Sequence record: MT446411.1
Source of the DNA: Escherichia virus TH40
Length of the DNA: 64,000 nucleotides
Reading direction: 5' to 3' (one strand)
In this document: piece by piece, positions 3,009 to 25,118 of the stretch
Position numbering within the stretch: the stretch's first letter is position 1
How the letters are laid out: every line of letters starts with the position of its first letter
Position numbers and translations under genes: made by a program
Notes under the pieces: generated by a model
Database searches by the model: none
The model's input: only the letters and a program-made list of their open reading frames with translations
What the model was told of the DNA's origin: nothing

Positions 3009-3082
3009 AAAGGACTCCTTATTGTTGGTCATGATTACGCTTTGCAGCCTTAACATAGCGGAATACTAGTTAGTAACTGTAT

Positions 3083-3358
3083 TTATAATCTTTTAAACTT
3101 GAAACAATATATTGCAAATAAATCAGAAAAATGTCTATCAACCCATATTCTTTGCACTGGACTAGTAACAGTCAGCATATAATGTGCTTTTTGTAAATTT
3201 ATTCCATTTTTATTCGGGCATTCTTTATTAACAGAATGGTACGTGCTTGCTACTATTTCAATTTCCCTTTCATATCTCTCGCTATCTGTTTGTGTGGGGA
3301 TAAATGCAATTCCAGCAATAACAAAAATAGAGATATACGTCCAAATCTTATATATCAT
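3083..3358 (-). CDS. hypothetical protein with N-terminal transmembrane helix
   Basis: 91-aa ORF; IWTYISIFVIAGIAFIPT hydrophobic stretch. Confidence 0.45.
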   Translation of the reverse strand: MIYKIWTYISIFVIAGIAFIPTQTDSERYEREIEIVASTYHSVNKECPNKNGINLQKAHYMLTVTSPVQRIWVDRHFSDLFAIYCFKFKRL

Positions 3359-8187: not shown

Positions 8188-8487
8188 TTAAAAAGAACCA
8201 GAGCCTTTAATTGTGTTCTGGCGACCTTTATTTTCGAATTCAGAATGGTCGATTTCGTATGCTTGTGCTACGCCAAAGGCCTTTTTAACTTTAGCTAAAG
8301 AACCTTTAGTTGTAACAATATTAAAAGTATTGCCTTTGGTAAAATCAACCAAATCCACTTGCACCCCTTGTTTACCAAGGCTTGCTACAATAGCATCAAC
8401 ATATTGTTGGTCTAAATTGCCTTGAACCCCAATTTGAAATGCTTTAGGAACTTTGGCTTCTGTGATAAATTCTTGATATGTTTTCAT
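8188..8487 (-). CDS. internal-protein-like head protein with capsid-targeting sequence (CTS)
   Basis: N-terminus MKTYQEFITE matches T4 IPII/IPIII CTS MKTYQEFIAE, with I-x-E prohead-protease cleavage motif. Confidence 0.7.
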   Translation of the reverse strand: MKTYQEFITEAKVPKAFQIGVQGNLDQQYVDAIVASLGKQGVQVDLVDFTKGNTFNIVTTKGSLAKVKKAFGVAQAYEIDHSEFENKGRQNTIKGSGSF

Positions 8488-8500
8488 ATTGTTTCTTTAA

Positions 8501-8815
8501 TCAAGCTTTAGGGAAATCGCGCAAAAATGCATCATAAAGTTTATTACCAATGCGACGAAATGCTTTTGCTGCATGAACGTTATCTGGGTTTGCAATTTTA
8601 ATCTGCATTACATGACTACCAGCCCATGATTTAGCTTCGTCATAATAACCTTTAATTTCTTTAATAGTCTTGCGTTTTCCACCAGGACCATCAACAGTAA
8701 TTTTCCACGAACCAGTGCTTGTTTCACTTGGTGGGGTTAACTGTTCAATCCAGACATAACCACCTTCAACACGTTGTTGAGTAGATTCAGTAATAAATTC
8801 TTGATAAGTTTTCAT
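8501..8815 (-). CDS. internal-protein-like head protein with CTS
   Basis: ATG at 8815 gives MKTYQEFITEST...; track start 8854 is an upstream extension. Confidence 0.7.
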   Translation of the reverse strand: MKTYQEFITESTQQRVEGGYVWIEQLTPPSETSTGSWKITVDGPGGKRKTIKEIKGYYDEAKSWAGSHVMQIKIANPDNVHAAKAFRRIGNKLYDAFLRDFPKA

Positions 8816-16737: not shown

Positions 16738-17169
16738 TTAAATTTCAAATTCTTTGCGGAAGTTGGAAGCATAAGATTGAACTGATGCTTTGTTGAATCC
16801 AAACTCACGCACAATCATATCAATAACAGCTCTGCGAGCAGCACCATTAGACATATTAACAGTTTTGAACATATCATAGCATAAATCTTTGTTGCTCATA
16901 CCGGAGCGTTTAGGTGCCTTACGCTCAGCTTTTGGTTCAGCTTTAGGAGTAGGTTTAACCTGTCCATCATTCAGACCTTTAAAAATTTTACCCGCCAGAG
17001 TTGCCAGTTTAGCAGCTTCGCCACGAGTGATACCAAATACTGCCGGGTTAAATGAAATACCTTCAGCTGTTAAACGTTTGAAGAACATACGCGCTGCGGA
17101 TTGCGCTTCAGCTTCAGAAGAGTTGTTTAATGCCAGTTTAACGTACTTAATCAGTTTTGAAGTTTTCAT
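16738..17169 (-). CDS. hypothetical protein, paralog of 17253..17678
   Basis: ATG at 17169 (MKTSKLIKYVK...); shares AARRA(V/L)ID...VQSYASNFRK C-terminal block with neighbour. Confidence 0.5.
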   Translation of the reverse strand: MKTSKLIKYVKLALNNSSEAEAQSAARMFFKRLTAEGISFNPAVFGITRGEAAKLATLAGKIFKGLNDGQVKPTPKAEPKAERKAPKRSGMSNKDLCYDMFKTVNMSNGAARRAVIDMIVREFGFNKASVQSYASNFRKEFEI

Positions 17170-17240
17170 TTTATTATCCCGTTTGTTTATTTGGTAACTC
17201 AGTATGGGATAATTATACACTATCCCACCTGGAAGTAAAA
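17170..17240 (-). promoter_or_regulatory. early promoter cassette (-35 GTTTTAC, -10 TATAAT inside inverted repeat)
   Basis: minus-strand gtGTTTTACttccaggtGGGATAgtgTATAATTATCCCatactgagttaccaaataaacaaacGGGAtaataaaATG. Confidence 0.5.
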
Positions 17241-17252
17241 CACTTTTCTCAA

Positions 17253-17678
17253 TTATTTTTGAGCTTTGCGGAAGTTAGAAGCATAAGACTGAACAACAGT
17301 CTTTTTGATATCATGGGTAGTAACCAGAACATCAATCAGAGCGCGGCGAGCTGCATTATCATTCATATCAATTTCTGCAAATGCCTGGAAGCAAATGTCA
17401 CGGGCGTTACCAGATTTGGACTGGATTTTTTCTTCTTTAACTTCTTCAATTGGGAATTCAATCATTTCAGCTTGGATTAATTCAATGATGGACTCTTTTG
17501 ACTGTTTGGTGTTTACCTTCAGTTCAGAATTAAGGGACTTAGCGATGGCAACAATCTGGGTTGAAGTCAGATGGATAAGGGCATCTTCACGAATGCAGAT
17601 TTCACATACTTCGTCAGCAACCATTTTGTTAGTGATGCGGGTAACAGAAAATGCAGAGGTCAGGGTCAGAAAGTTCAT
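17253..17678 (-). CDS. hypothetical protein, paralog of 16738..17169
   Basis: 141 aa; C-terminal ...NAARRALIDVLV...VVQSYASNFRKAQK. Confidence 0.5.
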   Translation of the reverse strand: MNFLTLTSAFSVTRITNKMVADEVCEICIREDALIHLTSTQIVAIAKSLNSELKVNTKQSKESIIELIQAEMIEFPIEEVKEEKIQSKSGNARDICFQAFAEIDMNDNAARRALIDVLVTTHDIKKTVVQSYASNFRKAQK

Positions 17679-17745
17679 TTTATTTCTCCAAAGTTTTTGT
17701 GATTCAGTGTGTAACTCAGTATGGAATCATTATGCACCCGGTCAA
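17679..17745 (-). promoter_or_regulatory. early promoter cassette
   Basis: minus-strand GTGTACA, 17 nt spacer, CATAATgattccatactgagtta...GGAGaaataaaATG. Confidence 0.4.
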
Positions 17746-17805
17746 TTCGGATGTACACTACTTTTTGAAGAAATATTAAAAATAAACCCGCCGGAGCGGG
17801 TTTGA

Positions 17806-18360
17806 TTAGTTCTTATAAAAACGGAAGGGATTGATATGAAAGGCTAACATAGCTTTCGGGATAGGACGGGACAGAAGACTTTTTAGCTTCCAACCACAAT
17901 ACACGCGCAGATAAAAGGTGATTCCACCAACTTTAAGATAAGGTACGGAAGCGAACACGCCCCATGCATTATCATTCCACATCCAGAGCCAGCCATGGTG
18001 AGCTTTATCCGGGGAGCCCGATTCAACATCAGGATTACCTTTATAATGGAATTTAGAATCACAATCGCGGCCCAGCTTATGATAAGCAAAATTGTAGGCT
18101 TTGTTTCGCCAGAGCCAGGCCACTCGCTGGAAGTAAACGCCTAACGGCCATTTTCTGATTTTTTCCCAGCGTTTAACATGACCACGGTCGCCATCAATTG
18201 GGTTGTCGTATGTCATCATCCAGTCAAATCCAAACGGAAGCTTACCAGTCTTTTTGTTATGGAACGGCACTACAAATGGTGTAAGGATAACAGCCAGAAT
18301 CATGGAGATAAAATCCAGTGGCACTAACAGAATCCAGCTTAGATATTTTAAAAGTTTCAT
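17806..18360 (-). CDS. hypothetical protein with N-terminal transmembrane segment, late-promoter driven
   Basis: 184 aa; N-terminal ILLVPLDFISMILAVILTPFVV; TATAAATA about 27 nt upstream on minus strand. Confidence 0.55.
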   Translation of the reverse strand: MKLLKYLSWILLVPLDFISMILAVILTPFVVPFHNKKTGKLPFGFDWMMTYDNPIDGDRGHVKRWEKIRKWPLGVYFQRVAWLWRNKAYNFAYHKLGRDCDSKFHYKGNPDVESGSPDKAHHGWLWMWNDNAWGVFASVPYLKVGGITFYLRVYCGWKLKSLLSRPIPKAMLAFHINPFRFYKN

Positions 18361-18386
18361 AAATTTCCTTAGTTATGGGTACGTTA

Positions 18387-18394
18387 TATTTATA
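18387..18394 (-). promoter_or_regulatory. T4-type late promoter motif TATAAATA
   Basis: exact TATAAATA on minus strand (plus tatttata) immediately after terminator hairpin and before ATG 18360. Confidence 0.5.
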
Positions 18395-18396
18395 AA

Positions 18397-18425
18397 AAAG
18401 CCCCAACCTTTCGGAAGGGGCTATA
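18397..18425 (-). terminator. intrinsic terminator
   Basis: minus-strand GCCCCttccgaaaggttGGGGC followed by TTTTTT. Confidence 0.55.
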
Positions 18426-18459
18426 CCTTGTCGGGGTTCCACCTGCAAGGCAAGTGTTC

Positions 18460-18843
18460 TTATCCGCGGGCGAATGCCATTGCAGCGCGTTCGTTGGCAC
18501 GGTCAGTGATGTTCAAGAATTTATCACGAGCGATTTCGATTGGAGCGCCAACCCAGTCAGCGGCTCCATTACCTGGAGATTGTTTAGGACGAACCATATA
18601 AGTTGAAACTTTGGAACCAGCTAGTTTAGCACCAGGTGCAGCGGCATTCTTAACGTCTTTAGCTTTGATACCAAAACCAGTTACAATGCCCCAAGAAACA
18701 CCATTAACTGGTTTCTTGAACATAACACGGTCGCCAATTGAAACCCCAGCTTTTTCTGGAGCTACTAAAGAAAATTTACCGGCTTCAGTCAGTACGGATT
18801 CGGTGATGGTATTGCGATTTAAAAATTCTGCATATGTAAGCAT
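18460..18843 (-). CDS. candidate internal protein with degenerate CTS, late-promoter driven
   Basis: 127 aa; N-terminus MLTYAEFLNRNTITE resembles CTS MKTYQEFIAE and carries an I-T-E cleavage motif; TATAAATA upstream. Confidence 0.5.
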   Translation of the reverse strand: MLTYAEFLNRNTITESVLTEAGKFSLVAPEKAGVSIGDRVMFKKPVNGVSWGIVTGFGIKAKDVKNAAAPGAKLAGSKVSTYMVRPKQSPGNGAADWVGAPIEIARDKFLNITDRANERAAMAFARG

Positions 18844-18874
18844 TTTGTTTTTCCATTATTAGGGTTGTTGTTAA

Positions 18875-18882
18875 TATTTATA
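18875..18882 (-). promoter_or_regulatory. T4-type late promoter motif TATAAATA
   Basis: minus-strand ggaaTATAAATAttaac about 32 nt upstream of ATG 18843. Confidence 0.5.
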
Positions 18883-18892
18883 TTCCATAGTA

Positions 18893-18945
18893 CCGGATGC
18901 ACCACCCGCTCGGATTTCTCATACTACCGGGCGCACCGCCCGCTC
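18893..18945 (-). repeat. tandem direct repeat (two ~24-nt GC-rich units, each a short hairpin)
   Basis: plus taccggatgcaccacccgctcgg ... taccgggcgcaccgcccgctctgg separated by 11 nt. Confidence 0.6.
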
Positions 18946-19084
18946 TGGAAAAACTCCGTAAAAGGTGCGCCGTTTCAGCTGTGATATAAGGGGCCATTAA
19001 CAAAACATAAAGATTTATTAATGTCAGTCCTTAAACAGGGAACTTCAGTCCGACGACTTACCGGTAGCGACCCGGTTTCTTGTT

Positions 19085-19160
19085 TGGTCGAGACAGTAGG
19101 AATCGAACCTACGACCCAGGACTTAGAAGGTCCTTGCTCTTCCTTCTGAGCTATGCCTCG
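19085..19160 (-). tRNA. tRNA-Arg (anticodon UCU)
   Basis: 76-nt cloverleaf folded by hand: acceptor CGAGGCA/TGTCTCG, D-arm GCTC-AGAAGGAA-GAGC, anticodon stem AGGAC/GTCCT with loop CTTCTAA, T-arm GTAGG-TTCGATT-CCTAC, encoded CCA. Confidence 0.8.
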
Positions 19161-19293
19161 TGCTTGTTCATAGCGGGGTGGACTCGAACCACCAATATTA
19201 AGTCACTCATGCTCCAAGCATGCAGGGCACTTACCCCGGACGGAATCGAACCGCATCTACAATACCTATCGCCATGATAATTTAAAATAAGTT
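19161..19293 (-). ncRNA. unresolved tRNA-like / small stable RNA region
   Basis: two T-arm-like motifs (GGTTCGATTCC, GGTGGTTCGAGTCCACC) but no canonical cloverleaf could be folded by hand. Confidence 0.25.
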
Positions 19294-19367
19294 TGGTGGC
19301 CCTGGGTGGAATCGAACCACCATCCAGCGATTATGAGTCGCTCGCTTGACCGTCCAGCTACAGGGCC
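19294..19367 (-). tRNA. tRNA with CAU anticodon (Met, or Ile if lysidine-modified as in T4)
   Basis: 74-nt cloverleaf: acceptor GGCCCTG/CAGGGCC perfect 7 bp, anticodon stem AGCGA/TCGCT with loop CTCATAA, T-arm GGTGG-TTCGATT-CCACC, encoded CCA. Confidence 0.75.
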
Positions 19368-20543: not shown

Positions 20544-20777
20544 TTATTTTTTACGGAAAATTGATTTATACTGTTTAGCCCATTTCTCGATAACTTCTGC
20601 CGGACCCTGGATAACAAAATAGTCCCCAAACTCTTCACCGCCGAGCTGACCGTAATTATCTAAGGCGTCGCGGAGAGTTCCATAAGGCATTTCGCCCATT
20701 TTATCTTTCTTGCCGGTGTAAATGAATTGCACTTTAACATCAGCAGTTTCATTAATAAATTCTTGATAAGTTTTCAT
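20544..20777 (-). CDS. internal-protein-like small protein with CTS
   Basis: 77 aa; N-terminus MKTYQEFINE (CTS with I-N-E cleavage motif). Confidence 0.7.
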   Translation of the reverse strand: MKTYQEFINETADVKVQFIYTGKKDKMGEMPYGTLRDALDNYGQLGGEEFGDYFVIQGPAEVIEKWAKQYKSIFRKK

Positions 20778-20832
20778 GTTGTCTCCAGTAGTTGATGGGA
20801 TAATTATACTGCAGTTATCCCAGCGCGTATAC
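20778..20832 (-). promoter_or_regulatory. early promoter cassette
   Basis: minus-strand GTATAC...GGGATAactgcagTATAATTATCCCatcaactactGGAGAcaacATG. Confidence 0.45.
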
Positions 20833-21075
20833 TTATTTTAAGTCTTCCAGACGTTTTTTCATCTTGGTACCATTCTTAGCAATTTCGCCTGCATCAGAAC
20901 AAAGAGCAAGGAGAGCTTTAACTTTACCCTGGTCGCCTTTAAAAGATGATGCATCTACAGAATCAGCAAGTTCTTTGATGCGAGCAAACAGACGCTCTGC
21001 TTCAGCAAGGGCTTGACCAAGTTTAACTTCCATACCATGAGAAGATTCATTAATAAATGTTTGATAAGTTTTCAT
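20833..21075 (-). CDS. internal-protein-like small protein with CTS
   Basis: 80 aa; N-terminus MKTYQTFINE. Confidence 0.7.
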   Translation of the reverse strand: MKTYQTFINESSHGMEVKLGQALAEAERLFARIKELADSVDASSFKGDQGKVKALLALCSDAGEIAKNGTKMKKRLEDLK

Positions 21076-21083
21076 TTGAAATC

Positions 21084-21356
21084 CTATTTTAGATAAATTG
21101 CGTATTTTTTATACCCAGCTGTCTCATGGCGGAGACCCTTGTCATTGGCAAAACGCTCAATGTTATTAATTTGGTTCTGGTCAAGTTCTGAAATGTCAAA
21201 CGCGAAAAAGTTGCGTTTGTTTCCAATTGTTATATGGTCAGTTAAGTCAATGCTATACAGGTGATTGATATTGTCAATCATAGCTTTGACTGCTTTACTA
21301 ATTTTTACTTCTTCATTCAGTTGGGACTCGTTGAAAAGTTCATTAAAAGTTTTCAT
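21084..21356 (-). CDS. internal-protein-like small protein with CTS-like N-terminus
   Basis: 90 aa; N-terminus MKTFNELFNE. Confidence 0.6.
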   Translation of the reverse strand: MKTFNELFNESQLNEEVKISKAVKAMIDNINHLYSIDLTDHITIGNKRNFFAFDISELDQNQINNIERFANDKGLRHETAGYKKYAIYLK

Positions 21357-21364
21357 AAGAAACC

Positions 21365-21697
21365 TTATTTATACAGTTTAGCTAGTTCTTTACGTCCGCG
21401 AGCAGACATAATGAATTGTTCATCACCAATTTTGAAATAAGCCATGCCGCCGTCAACAGCGATACCAATTTCTTTAGTACCTTCTTTACCTTTCCACTTG
21501 CCACCAGATTTTAGGACAGCTTCAACTGCAGCTTTGGAATATTTGGATGTTTGAAAACGTTCATTACCAATCTGAAAGAAAACACCATCTGCATTTTTGG
21601 ATAAACCAAATTTCAGAGAGCCTTCACTATCATCAATTGATTTAGTCTCATTGATGGCGGATTCGGCTAAAAACTCATTATAAGTCTTGATGTTCAT
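21365..21697 (-). CDS. internal-protein-like protein with CTS-like N-terminus
   Basis: ATG at 21697 with GGAG SD gives MNIKTYNEFLAES... Confidence 0.6.
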   Translation of the reverse strand: MNIKTYNEFLAESAINETKSIDDSEGSLKFGLSKNADGVFFQIGNERFQTSKYSKAAVEAVLKSGGKWKGKEGTKEIGIAVDGGMAYFKIGDEQFIMSARGRKELAKLYK

Positions 21698-24632: not shown

Positions 24633-25078
24633 CCTTTCCATCCTAATTTTTTCAGTGAGTTTTCAGTGATTATCCTGAACGTTATACCCATCTTATCCGC
24701 GGTAGCTTGCGCAGCTTTCCATTTGTCAGAGTTAACGCTCCAGGTGTACATCTCGTTAATAAATCTCTTTTTACTCGCGGCTGTATTATTAACCGGTTTG
24801 GTTGGAGGTCTTGTTTCTTTTAATGGCTTAACTTCAAAAAAGAACTGTTGTCCTGTATCAAACTTAACCCAGAAATCCATATAATATCTGCGCTTTTTCC
24901 CTTCAGCATTGCAGAAGTATGGAATAATCACAGTCTCAGAGCCCCATTGAACAACGTTCGGATGGTTGTCGAGCCATCTCATCAACCAAGCCTCCCAGCT
25001 TGACCGGTATTGTATTTTCTTCCAGTCGCCCTTATATTTTTCTATATTAGTGGGCTTAAATTTCCCGGAGTATGCCAT
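24629..25078 (-). CDS. 4: head completion protein gp4
   Basis: 149 aa at divergent junction with gene 53 as in T4. Confidence 0.8.
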
Positions 25079-25110
25079 ATAGCCTCCTAATAAATATTGA
25101 TATACTTATT

Positions 25111-25118
25111 TATAAATG
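25111..25118 (+). promoter_or_regulatory. late-promoter-like motif TATAAATG
   Basis: 7 of 8 match to TATAAATA, about 9 nt before GGAGG SD of gene 53. Confidence 0.4.

Follow-up and report, generated by a model that had tools for sequence, protein, structure and literature searches.

Two accessory genes with predicted late promoters beside the tRNA cluster of a Gaprivervirus: a candidate internal head protein and a DUF7338 protein with a predicted membrane anchor

Why do two small genes, lying side by side on the minus strand of a T4-like phage genome, each carry an exact late-promoter motif, and what might they encode? The question is raised by a stretch of 64,000 nucleotides (nt) of Escherichia virus TH40 (sequence record MT446411.1), hereafter the window, which belongs to Gaprivervirus (T4-like coliphages) and has Escherichia phage vB_EcoM_VR20 (VR20) as its closest relative. 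Over the 1.5 kb around the two genes, identity is 92.5% with VR20 and about 90% with EAWsc9, P8, MN01 and further phages, each of them a Gaprivervirus. The first open reading frame, ORF-A (17806..18360, minus strand; 184 residues), encodes a DUF7338 protein in which a predicted transmembrane helix at the N-terminus precedes a basic, tryptophan-rich alpha/beta domain. The second, ORF-B (18460..18843, minus strand, from the ORF list; 127 residues, starting MLTYAEFLNR), encodes a candidate new internal head protein, with a leader of the capsid-targeting sequence (CTS) type and a basic core. Their counterparts in VR20 are labelled "hypothetical protein". With moderate confidence, we favour the reading that these are two independent accessory cassettes of a single gene each, bounded by terminators and served by their own gp55-type late promoters, ORF-B being an internal head protein and ORF-A most likely being directed to the cell envelope. 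The arrangement is ordinary for T4-like phages, and the two genes are uncharacterised passengers in it.

The earlier note on this DNA had reported exact motifs on the minus strand 27 and 32 nt upstream of the two start codons. Indeed, TATAAATA is found at 18394-18387 before ORF-A and at 18882-18875 before ORF-B, exact and intergenic in both cases, at these distances from its last base to the A of the ATG (18360 and 18843), which leaves 26 and 31 nt in between. A T4-type late promoter consists of an 8-bp box at -13 to -6 and does not need a -35 element (PMC1524935, PMC2988020). As the box is taken to occupy these positions (PMC1524935), transcription is predicted to start near 18381 for ORF-A, which has a good AAGGA Shine-Dalgarno sequence, and near 18869 for ORF-B, where AT-rich TTAACAA follows the box. 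Both motifs thus fit a T4-type late promoter by the 8-bp box and by its placement; the benchmark is a gap of 18-29 nt between motif and ATG at clean intergenic TATAAATA sites, which precede plus-strand structural genes of the window and the minus-strand gp4 and rI-like genes. The window holds 21 exact copies against 5.3 +/- 2.3 expected, a number that none of 100 shuffles reached. From the shuffle density of about 4e-5 per position per strand, the chance that any one gene has an exact motif within a particular 20-nt stretch before it is about 8e-4, and therefore it is very unlikely that motifs stand before two adjacent genes by coincidence. The predicted late RNAs begin with unstructured leaders of 21 nt (ORF-A) and 26 nt (ORF-B), and VR20 encodes gp33. 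Late expression of both genes is thus a prediction from sequence.

The strand is not exclusively early, and late transcription from it is no anomaly: in T4 the early and middle transcripts share one polarity and "late transcripts have either polarity" (PMC2988020). This strand also carries e, the ip genes and genes 2, 3 and 4. Two further clean minus-strand copies of TATAAATA are located 23 nt before an rI-type lysis-inhibition gene (3056-3087; phrog_1246; ATG 3056) and 28 nt before the gp4 head-closure gene (25078-25114; phrog_218; ATG 25078). Since such sites precede rI-type and gp4 genes, it is reasonable, as a rule of thumb, to read a late promoter at this place as the mark of a lysis or virion protein; the rule suits ORF-B well and is unestablished for ORF-A. 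When five T4-like genomes were surveyed, the only genes reported to have late promoters were orthologues of T4 late genes, and novel ORFs were co-expressed with early genes (PMC1524935). Measured against that survey, two non-T4 ORFs with late promoters are a modest exception.

Conservation of the motifs differs between the two genes. The ORF-B promoter is unchanged in all five sequences compared (the window, VR20, EAWsc9, P8 and P896). For ORF-A, an exact motif stands in the window, VR20, TH22 and three more Gaprivervirus contigs from IMG/VR (L010, L012 and L013; contig L009 is the VR20 genome itself and is not counted). It weighs against an own late promoter for ORF-A that in EAWsc9, P8 and RZ the leader differs and the site reads TATAAATC, and that it is absent in L011, L014 and the Slopekvirus and Felix O1-like homologues; in Karamvirus-like contigs it reads CATAAATA. 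Because the exact promoter is confined to part of the Gaprivervirus lineage, late timing would be local to it and not a property of the DUF7338 family.

The degenerate or missing motif in many relatives that retain ORF-A could also mean that the TATAAATA copies are not operative, and that both genes are expressed mainly early or at middle times by read-through from the tRNA transcription unit. Early read-through into ORF-B is possible since no U-tract terminator separates it from tRNA-Arg, novel ORFs went with the early genes in the five genomes mentioned above, and not every listed T4 late-promoter site is proven active (PMC2988020). However, both motifs are exact consensus, intergenic and at benchmark spacing, and a strong terminator lies immediately before the ORF-A promoter. 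Moreover, the promoter and leader of ORF-B are much more conserved than its synonymous sites, with 5 of 134 columns variable as opposed to 35 of 128 third codon positions, and both remote relatives of ORF-B described below have late-type octamers in the same place. We therefore regard expression by read-through as very improbable. The predicted fold of the read-through RNA, in which the ribosome-binding site (RBS) of ORF-B is paired, points the same way, though it is not distinctive when compared with control starts.

This fold involves a structured leader upstream of the ORF-B promoter (18884..18958, minus strand), which contains two similar hairpins at about 18942-18928 and 18908-18894. Its 5' arm GUUUUUCCA (18954-18946) is complementary to the Shine-Dalgarno region UGGAAAAAC (18855-18847); in the minimum-free-energy fold of the read-through RNA the two are paired and enclose both hairpins and the late promoter, whereas the RNA made from the late promoter is open. 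All 35 predicted leader pairs can form in the four distinct sequences, with one compensatory change from G-C to A-U and two wobble changes, a pattern that is not significant. Leaders that sequester the RBS are known for the T4 genes e, soc, 49 and I-TevI (PMC3014915). As in those genes, the long RNAs of ORF-B and of both remote relatives, P0041 and P0042, are predicted to pair the Shine-Dalgarno sequence or AUG with sequence upstream of the late start, the relatives by an analogous helix over the AUG. In contrast to the T4 cases, the masking of ORF-B is a prediction and is not distinctive among the gene starts of the window: 36% of 84 control starts had as many RBS bases paired upstream, and in the ranking of these 84 ORF-B comes 15th, the remote relatives 14th and 7th and ORF-A 35th. 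As the control shows that such pairing is common in this kind of fold prediction, RBS masking is put forward as a hypothesis only. No masking is predicted for ORF-A, where the terminator does the insulating. The strongest predicted upstream masking among the 84 starts belongs to the gene at 17253-17678 on the minus strand (17 of 17 nt; probability 0.97).

The two genes come and go separately. Both are carried by the window, VR20, EAWsc9 and P8, ORF-A alone by TH22 and RZ, and ORF-B alone by P896 and TH54 (the lack of ORF-A in TH54 being judged by coverage); since close relatives carry one, the other or both, ORF-A and ORF-B are independent cassettes. Their boundaries are sharp in close relatives. 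The ORF-B cassette, with leader, promoter and ORF, covers 18453..18962 (minus strand), and in TH22 and RZ some 165-184 nt of unrelated non-coding sequence stand in place of window positions 18962-18453. The ORF-A cassette, with promoter core, ORF and its own terminator, covers 17784..18390 (minus strand), and P896 has about 10-20 nt in place of window positions 18390-17784, TATAAATA being destroyed at the deletion junction. As the promoters fall inside the replaced segments, they travel with their genes.

The clean terminator that had been described between the genes is present as the hairpin GCCCCUUCCGAAAGGUUGGGGC followed by six U (18399..18422, minus strand), with 6+2 bp, a GC-rich stem and about -16 kcal/mol; its U-tract extends into the ORF-A promoter. 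This hairpin is also found in relatives without ORF-A or ORF-B, and thus it belongs to the backbone. A second terminator follows ORF-A (17784..17803, minus strand; 8-bp stem and T-run, -14 kcal/mol, z = -4.5), and after it a promoter scan found a sigma-70/early-type promoter, TGTACA-17-CATAAT (17729..17757, minus strand), for the next gene (17253-17678).

It has been proposed that cassettes of a stem-loop and a promoter, termed PeSL and PmSL, shuffle genes in the hyperplastic regions of T4-like phages (PMC4122927). The locus resembles these elements (Arbiol 2010; Comeau 2014) in that composites of stem-loop and promoter border small variable ORFs, and in that the ends of indels between close relatives, here genomes with ORF-A only, ORF-B only or both, coincide with terminator and promoter elements. 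Moreover, a canonical terminator plus early-type promoter, that is, a PeSL-like element, follows ORF-A (17803-17729), as one does the ORF-B relative in contig L096. It differs in that there is no sigma-70-type promoter upstream of ORF-A or ORF-B, where the stem-loops precede the late-type TATAAATA instead; recombination through these elements is only putative here. PMC4122927 makes no mention of "late promoter". The early-promoter region after the ORF-B relative (L096, 1000-1120; TATAATGATTTCATACTGAGTTAACA) is closely similar to window positions 17715-17760 on the minus strand (CATAATGATTCCATACTGAGTTACACA), which looks like a conserved PeSL-type element common to distant T4-like phages. The segment that takes the place of ORF-B in TH22 (L005, reverse strand, about 1639-1822) and, at the same place, in RZ (L006) has a tRNA-like T-arm, GGGTTCAAATCCCGG. 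It was called by neither ARAGORN nor Rfam; the remains of a tRNA are one possibility, and a small stable RNA similar to T4 RNA C/D is another.

Both ORF-A and ORF-B are real, constrained genes under strong purifying selection. Across five sequences ORF-B varies at 35 nucleotides, all 35 in third codon positions, with no amino-acid change (dS at most 0.33, dN 0, for synonymous and non-synonymous divergence respectively). ORF-A shows a dN/dS of 0.02-0.04 with dS up to about 2. ORF-B is found in only 15 phage records, and the protein is 99-100% identical in each. Recent horizontal spread was considered as a cause of the 100% protein identity and rejected, as up to 25 synonymous differences were counted in the DNA.

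What kind of protein, then, is ORF-B? The CTS of T4 internal proteins (IPs) is of the type MKTYQEFIAE, in which targeting rests mainly on residues 4 and 7 and processing on residues 8 and 10; IP propeptides are 10-19 residues long and the prohead protease gp21 cuts after L/I-x-E (PMC9026906). Codons 1-20 of ORF-B (18784..18843, minus strand) read as a CTS-like propeptide, MLTYAEFLNRNTITE/SVLTE/A (slashes mark L/I-x-E sites), which keeps Tyr4 and Phe7. Its two L/I-x-E motifs, at residues 13-15 (ITE15) and 18-20 (LTE20), are the only [LI]xE motifs of the protein, and would give a propeptide of 15 residues, within the known range, or of 20, one beyond it. The predicted mature part has 107-112 residues, 11.1-11.7 kDa, an isoelectric point (pI) of 10.1-10.3 and no hydrophobic segment. 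ORF-B thus has the putative L/I-x-E site and the small, basic and soluble mature part of an internal head protein.

A loose CTS pattern has eight matches in the six-frame translation against 0.55 expected, and seven of them stand at the exact N-terminus of minus-strand ORFs: ORF-B, four ORFs of the ipI-type locus at 20.5-21.7 kb, and a further pair between 8.2 and 8.8 kb. As this pattern was written after seeing ORF-B, a position-specific scoring matrix was built from the six other leaders only. It gave ORF-B 11.4 bits, the best score that any start outside the training set reached among the 745 Met starts (next 0.6; background -19.7 +/- 6.7), and the CTS-like N-terminus noticed earlier is thereby upheld. 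Four of the six other ORFs match PHROG families of internal head or virion proteins (phrog_8111, 3499, 7673 and 2667), and the best match of the remaining two is phrog_3966, of unknown function. These six, with leaders of the type MKTYQEFI, lie at 8190-8815 and 20544-21697 on the minus strand; TATAAATA was not found at 18-31 nt before any of them, and two have sigma-70-like TATAAT boxes. The CTS ORF with its ATG at 21356 has a TATAAATA only 9 nt upstream, overlapping the stop codon of the preceding gene.

Relatives of ORF-B are few. An exhaustive HMMER search against 1.84 billion representatives gave three hits, one of them a fragment, and a scan of IMG/VR with the ORF-B alignment returned VR20 itself only. 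Two real remote relatives, P0041 and P0042, share 38-41% identity with ORF-B in the core. P0041 begins MYTFKEFLVE/SELDLITE/A (sites LVE10 and ITE18) and P0042 begins MKSFKEFMLSE/K (site LSE11), so that in both a CTS-type leader is joined to the conserved core, by linkers that differ in length and sequence. Late-type octamers precede their ATGs, GATAAATA by 36 nt in P0041 and AATAAATA by 28 nt in P0042; among T4 late promoters the commonest variant has A at -13, and other single deviations are also among the listed sites (PMC2988020). The contig that carries P0041 is T4-like, and a tRNA gene and a hairpin immediately precede P0041 there.

Several observations weigh against ORF-B as an internal head protein. 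Position 10 of the CTS is Arg and not Glu, and position 2 is Leu and not Lys. The protein matches none of the PHROG or Pfam IP families, and its gene lies outside the ip5/7/10 and ip6/9 loci. Its perfect conservation is unusual among proteins that are described as highly diverse, and the single-sequence structure model failed, with a predicted local distance difference test score (pLDDT) of 36 and an unreadable fold. More broadly, no match was found in Pfam, PHROG, NCBIfam, PADLOC or PDB. It might be argued that ORF-B is not packaged but acts in the infected cell, its CTS-like start being a recombination relic of the 5' ends of neighbouring ip genes. The Glu replaced at position 10 is needed for processing there, and a passage of PMC4122927 that cites Repoila 1994 describes IP loci as recombination hot spots. 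However, the remote relatives retain a CTS-type leader with an L/I-x-E site, and they keep it while the linkers differ, which argues for selection on the leader. In addition, the leader residues of ORF-B are as invariant as the remainder of the protein, residues 4 and 7, the main targeting determinants, are kept, and propeptides of up to 19 residues are known (PMC9026906). A relic leader on an unpackaged protein seems to us unlikely.

Hence ORF-B is probably a member of a new family of CTS-bearing internal head proteins, as judged from its sequence. With T4 IPI, IPII and IPIII and the T-even "Ip" genes it shares a CTS leader with aromatic residues at 4 and 7, an L/I-x-E at the end of the leader, a small and basic mature part, a gene on the counterclockwise strand near the tRNA/ipI region, and an optional, patchy presence in close relatives. 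In contrast to these, its mature part is unlike any IP family in PHROGs and Pfam, it lies on the opposite side of the tRNA cluster from the IP locus, the protein is invariant among its carriers, none of the 15 genomes annotates it as an IP, and its packaging is a prediction. If this assignment is correct, ORF-B would be made late and recruited to the scaffolding core of the prohead through the N-terminal CTS. As the leader has Leu2 and Arg10, cleavage would have to occur further in, and gp21 may trim the protein after ITE15 or LTE20. The product, of 11-12 kDa and basic (pI about 10.2), would sit with the packaged DNA and enter the next host on injection, where it would most likely protect the incoming genome or aid take-over. 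T4 IPI* is injected and blocks a host restriction enzyme (PMC3012670), and by analogy with it an injected protective or take-over role is our best guess for ORF-B.

ORF-A belongs to a much wider family. It matches Pfam DUF7338 (PF24027) with 209.7 bits (threshold 27), its residues 1-183 aligning to positions 1-179 of the 180 in the model, and it also matches phrog_2143; both families are of unknown function. As a member of them ORF-A is full-length and high-scoring, with the difference that the late promoter is limited to part of the Gaprivervirus lineage. No mention of DUF7338 was found in the literature searched, and sequence searches of NCBIfam, PADLOC and PDB gave no match for ORF-A. The protein has a single strongly hydrophobic segment (residues about 3-35; maximum of 2.3 in a 19-residue Kyte-Doolittle window). 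The AlphaFold model, from a 34-sequence alignment (pLDDT 95; predicted template modelling score 0.85), has a membrane helix at 2-33, short helices and an antiparallel sheet with long strands. Hydropathy and model thus agree with the earlier description of an N-terminal transmembrane protein. According to hydropathy, alignment and flanking charges, the membrane helix covers codons about 7-32 (18265..18342, minus strand), with a conserved Asp/Glu in its middle and an invariant Pro28. Net charge is +2.35 on the N-terminal side of the helix and +0.56 on the C-terminal side, which favours an N-in/C-out orientation with a periplasmic C-terminal domain. This domain has a pI of 9.9 and 10 Trp, and its modelled fold has no match among solved structures. 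In the family alignment T50, D52, W82, R85, N86, Y89, R152, G156, W157 and K158 are invariant, and the motifs TxDNPxxGD, WLWRNKAYN, RxYxGWKxK and HINPF stand out; these look more like a binding or catalytic site than like a holin.

The comparison with holins is needed since several GenBank records label homologues of ORF-A "holin", and some "amidase-6". If ORF-A were a lysis protein (holin, antiholin or lysis-timing factor), built of a single membrane helix and a sizeable domain in the periplasm, its predicted late timing would be explained. One N-terminal transmembrane segment with a C-terminal domain of about 150 residues resembles the class III holin T and the signal-anchored RI, and the rI-like gene of the window also has a minus-strand late promoter. 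A further point in favour of lysis, and thus against an envelope accessory role, is that in jumbo contig L065, alone among the contigs, the DUF7338 gene directly follows the endolysin. However, ORF-A matches no holin family in Pfam, PHROG or NCBIfam, and VR20 already has the holin T (next to gene 38), the antiholin RI and the lysozyme E, so that ORF-A would not be the sole hole-former. In contig L060 the DUF7338 gene is set apart from endolysin and spanin by a terminator and a canonical 92-residue holin. Where Felix O1-like and T4-like phages have the gene, it lies among tRNAs, far from lysis genes; it is optional among otherwise near-identical phages; and invariant polar motifs across distant members would be atypical of holins. 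Because VR20 has T, RI and E and L060 has a separate holin, the labels "holin" and "amidase-6" are unsupported, and on the same grounds a holin was rejected as the leading explanation. A lysis role of any kind for ORF-A appears improbable to us. Of the earlier suggestion that the two products are virion-associated or lysis-related, the first part is a good inference for ORF-B, given its CTS and the behaviour of its family, and nothing ties ORF-A to lysis. The text on the VpaE1 virion proteome does not list a homologue of ORF-A.

The distribution of DUF7338 offers other leads. By tblastn the family is present in at least 580 phage records from several families. Gaprivervirus, Karamvirus-like, Slopekvirus, Felix O1-like, Av-05-like and some jumbo phages have the gene within a tRNA cluster or beside one, with gene and tRNAs on one strand. 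The tRNA-associated contigs (L003, L004, L015-L019, L026-L049, L040, L048, L067, L071, L073, L081 and L086) come from several unrelated lineages, and in Felix O1-like phages the ATG of the DUF7338 gene stands about 20 nt after a tRNA. Co-transfer, shared transcription and a common insertion hot spot are candidates for this association. Elsewhere, DUF7338 is the last gene of the tail-fibre module. In Chitinivorax it lies at a prophage edge, behind a fibre and an assembly chaperone; in L091 it comes after a Gly-rich fibre-like protein, in L060 after central fibre J and the side-fibre genes, and in L066 and L057 after genes for fibres or assembly.

On the basis of predicted topology and gene position, we tentatively suggest for ORF-A an accessory function directed to the envelope, such as masking or modification of a receptor or another envelope component, or superinfection exclusion; this is a possibility that we hold with considerable doubt. 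The protein would be made late in this phage, be anchored in the inner membrane by its one N-terminal helix, expose its conserved basic, Trp-rich domain most likely to the periplasm, and act on the cell envelope and not form holes. That gene neighbourhood and predicted topology are the only grounds for such a role counts against it. Cor of phi80 and N15, Llp of T5, Z/fun of P2 and T4 Imm and Sp are small envelope-located proteins, Cor and Llp being outer-membrane lipoproteins. DUF7338 resembles Cor, Llp and Z/fun in gene position only, as it likewise follows fibre or fibre-assembly genes or sits at a prophage edge; it has no similarity in sequence or fold to any of these proteins and, unlike Cor and Llp, has a helical anchor and no lipobox.

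A bolder joint proposal can be made for the two genes, although we would not expect it to prove correct. DUF7338 would be a new class of enzyme or ligand-binding protein, anchored in the inner membrane and periplasmic, which alters or masks a conserved envelope component late in infection, and ORF-B would represent a new family of anti-defence effectors, strictly conserved and injected. The DUF7338 fold would then be new to solved structures, and its gene would travel on its own as a cassette, in the company of tail-fibre modules and tRNA islands, through many unrelated phages. Its target would be a receptor, lipopolysaccharide or a component linked to peptidoglycan, and its purpose the exclusion of competitors or the sparing of progeny that would be lost on cell debris.

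As for the surroundings of the locus, the minus-strand order annotated in VR20 is rI, tk, vs, regB, ip7, ip10, denV, ip5, e, nudE and e.2, followed by about 17 unnamed ORFs, VR20_144 (ORF-A), VR20_145 (ORF-B), VR20_146, tRNA-Arg, tRNA-Met(CAU), Trna.3/.4, ip6, ip9, 57B, 57A, 1, 3, 2 and 4, after which the strand switches to 53, 5 and 6. By this order, ORF-A and ORF-B belong to the plastic region that adjoins the tRNA cluster on its downstream side. In the window the last gene of that cluster, tRNA-Arg(UCU) (19085..19160, minus strand; ARAGORN and Rfam), lies directly upstream of the ORF-B cassette; Rfam found two tRNAs only, and no match for the ORF-B leader or for the replacement segment of TH22. 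An ORF of 80 residues (VR20_146), which stands between ORF-B and tRNA-Arg in relatives, is missing from the window (19085-19367, minus strand), and the spacer between tRNA-Arg and tRNA-Met(CAU) measures 133 nt in the window as opposed to 2 nt in VR20. The tRNA with the CAU anticodon probably serves Ile after lysidine modification, as a tRNA common among T4-like phages does (PMC1524935). Downstream of ORF-A, the genes at 16738-17220 and 17253-17678 (both minus strand) are tandem paralogues whose C-terminal domains, some 65 residues long, correspond to each other (46% identity, E 8e-17; ...AARRAxIDxxV...VQSYASNFRK). The two genes fall into phrog_18416 and phrog_9997, and one relative labels them "rho-N" and "H15" domain proteins.

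For the biology of these phages, the pairing of a stem-loop with a late promoter means that the concept of gene-shuffling regulatory cassettes in T4-like genomes, so far tied to early and middle promoters, takes in late promoters too. Internal head proteins enter the host together with the injected DNA, so that their action precedes all phage gene expression, and T4 IPI*, which disarms a host restriction enzyme, is the internal protein with a known function. The ORF-B family, which bears a CTS and is invariant yet optional among near-identical phages, is thus a candidate for a new injected counter-defence protein, and phages with ORF-A only, ORF-B only and both exist in nature for comparison. 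DUF7338, in turn, combines a confidently predicted fold without solved relatives, invariant polar motifs and the mislabel "holin" in databases. Correcting that label and finding the role of the family would improve the annotation of many phages that are candidates for therapy.

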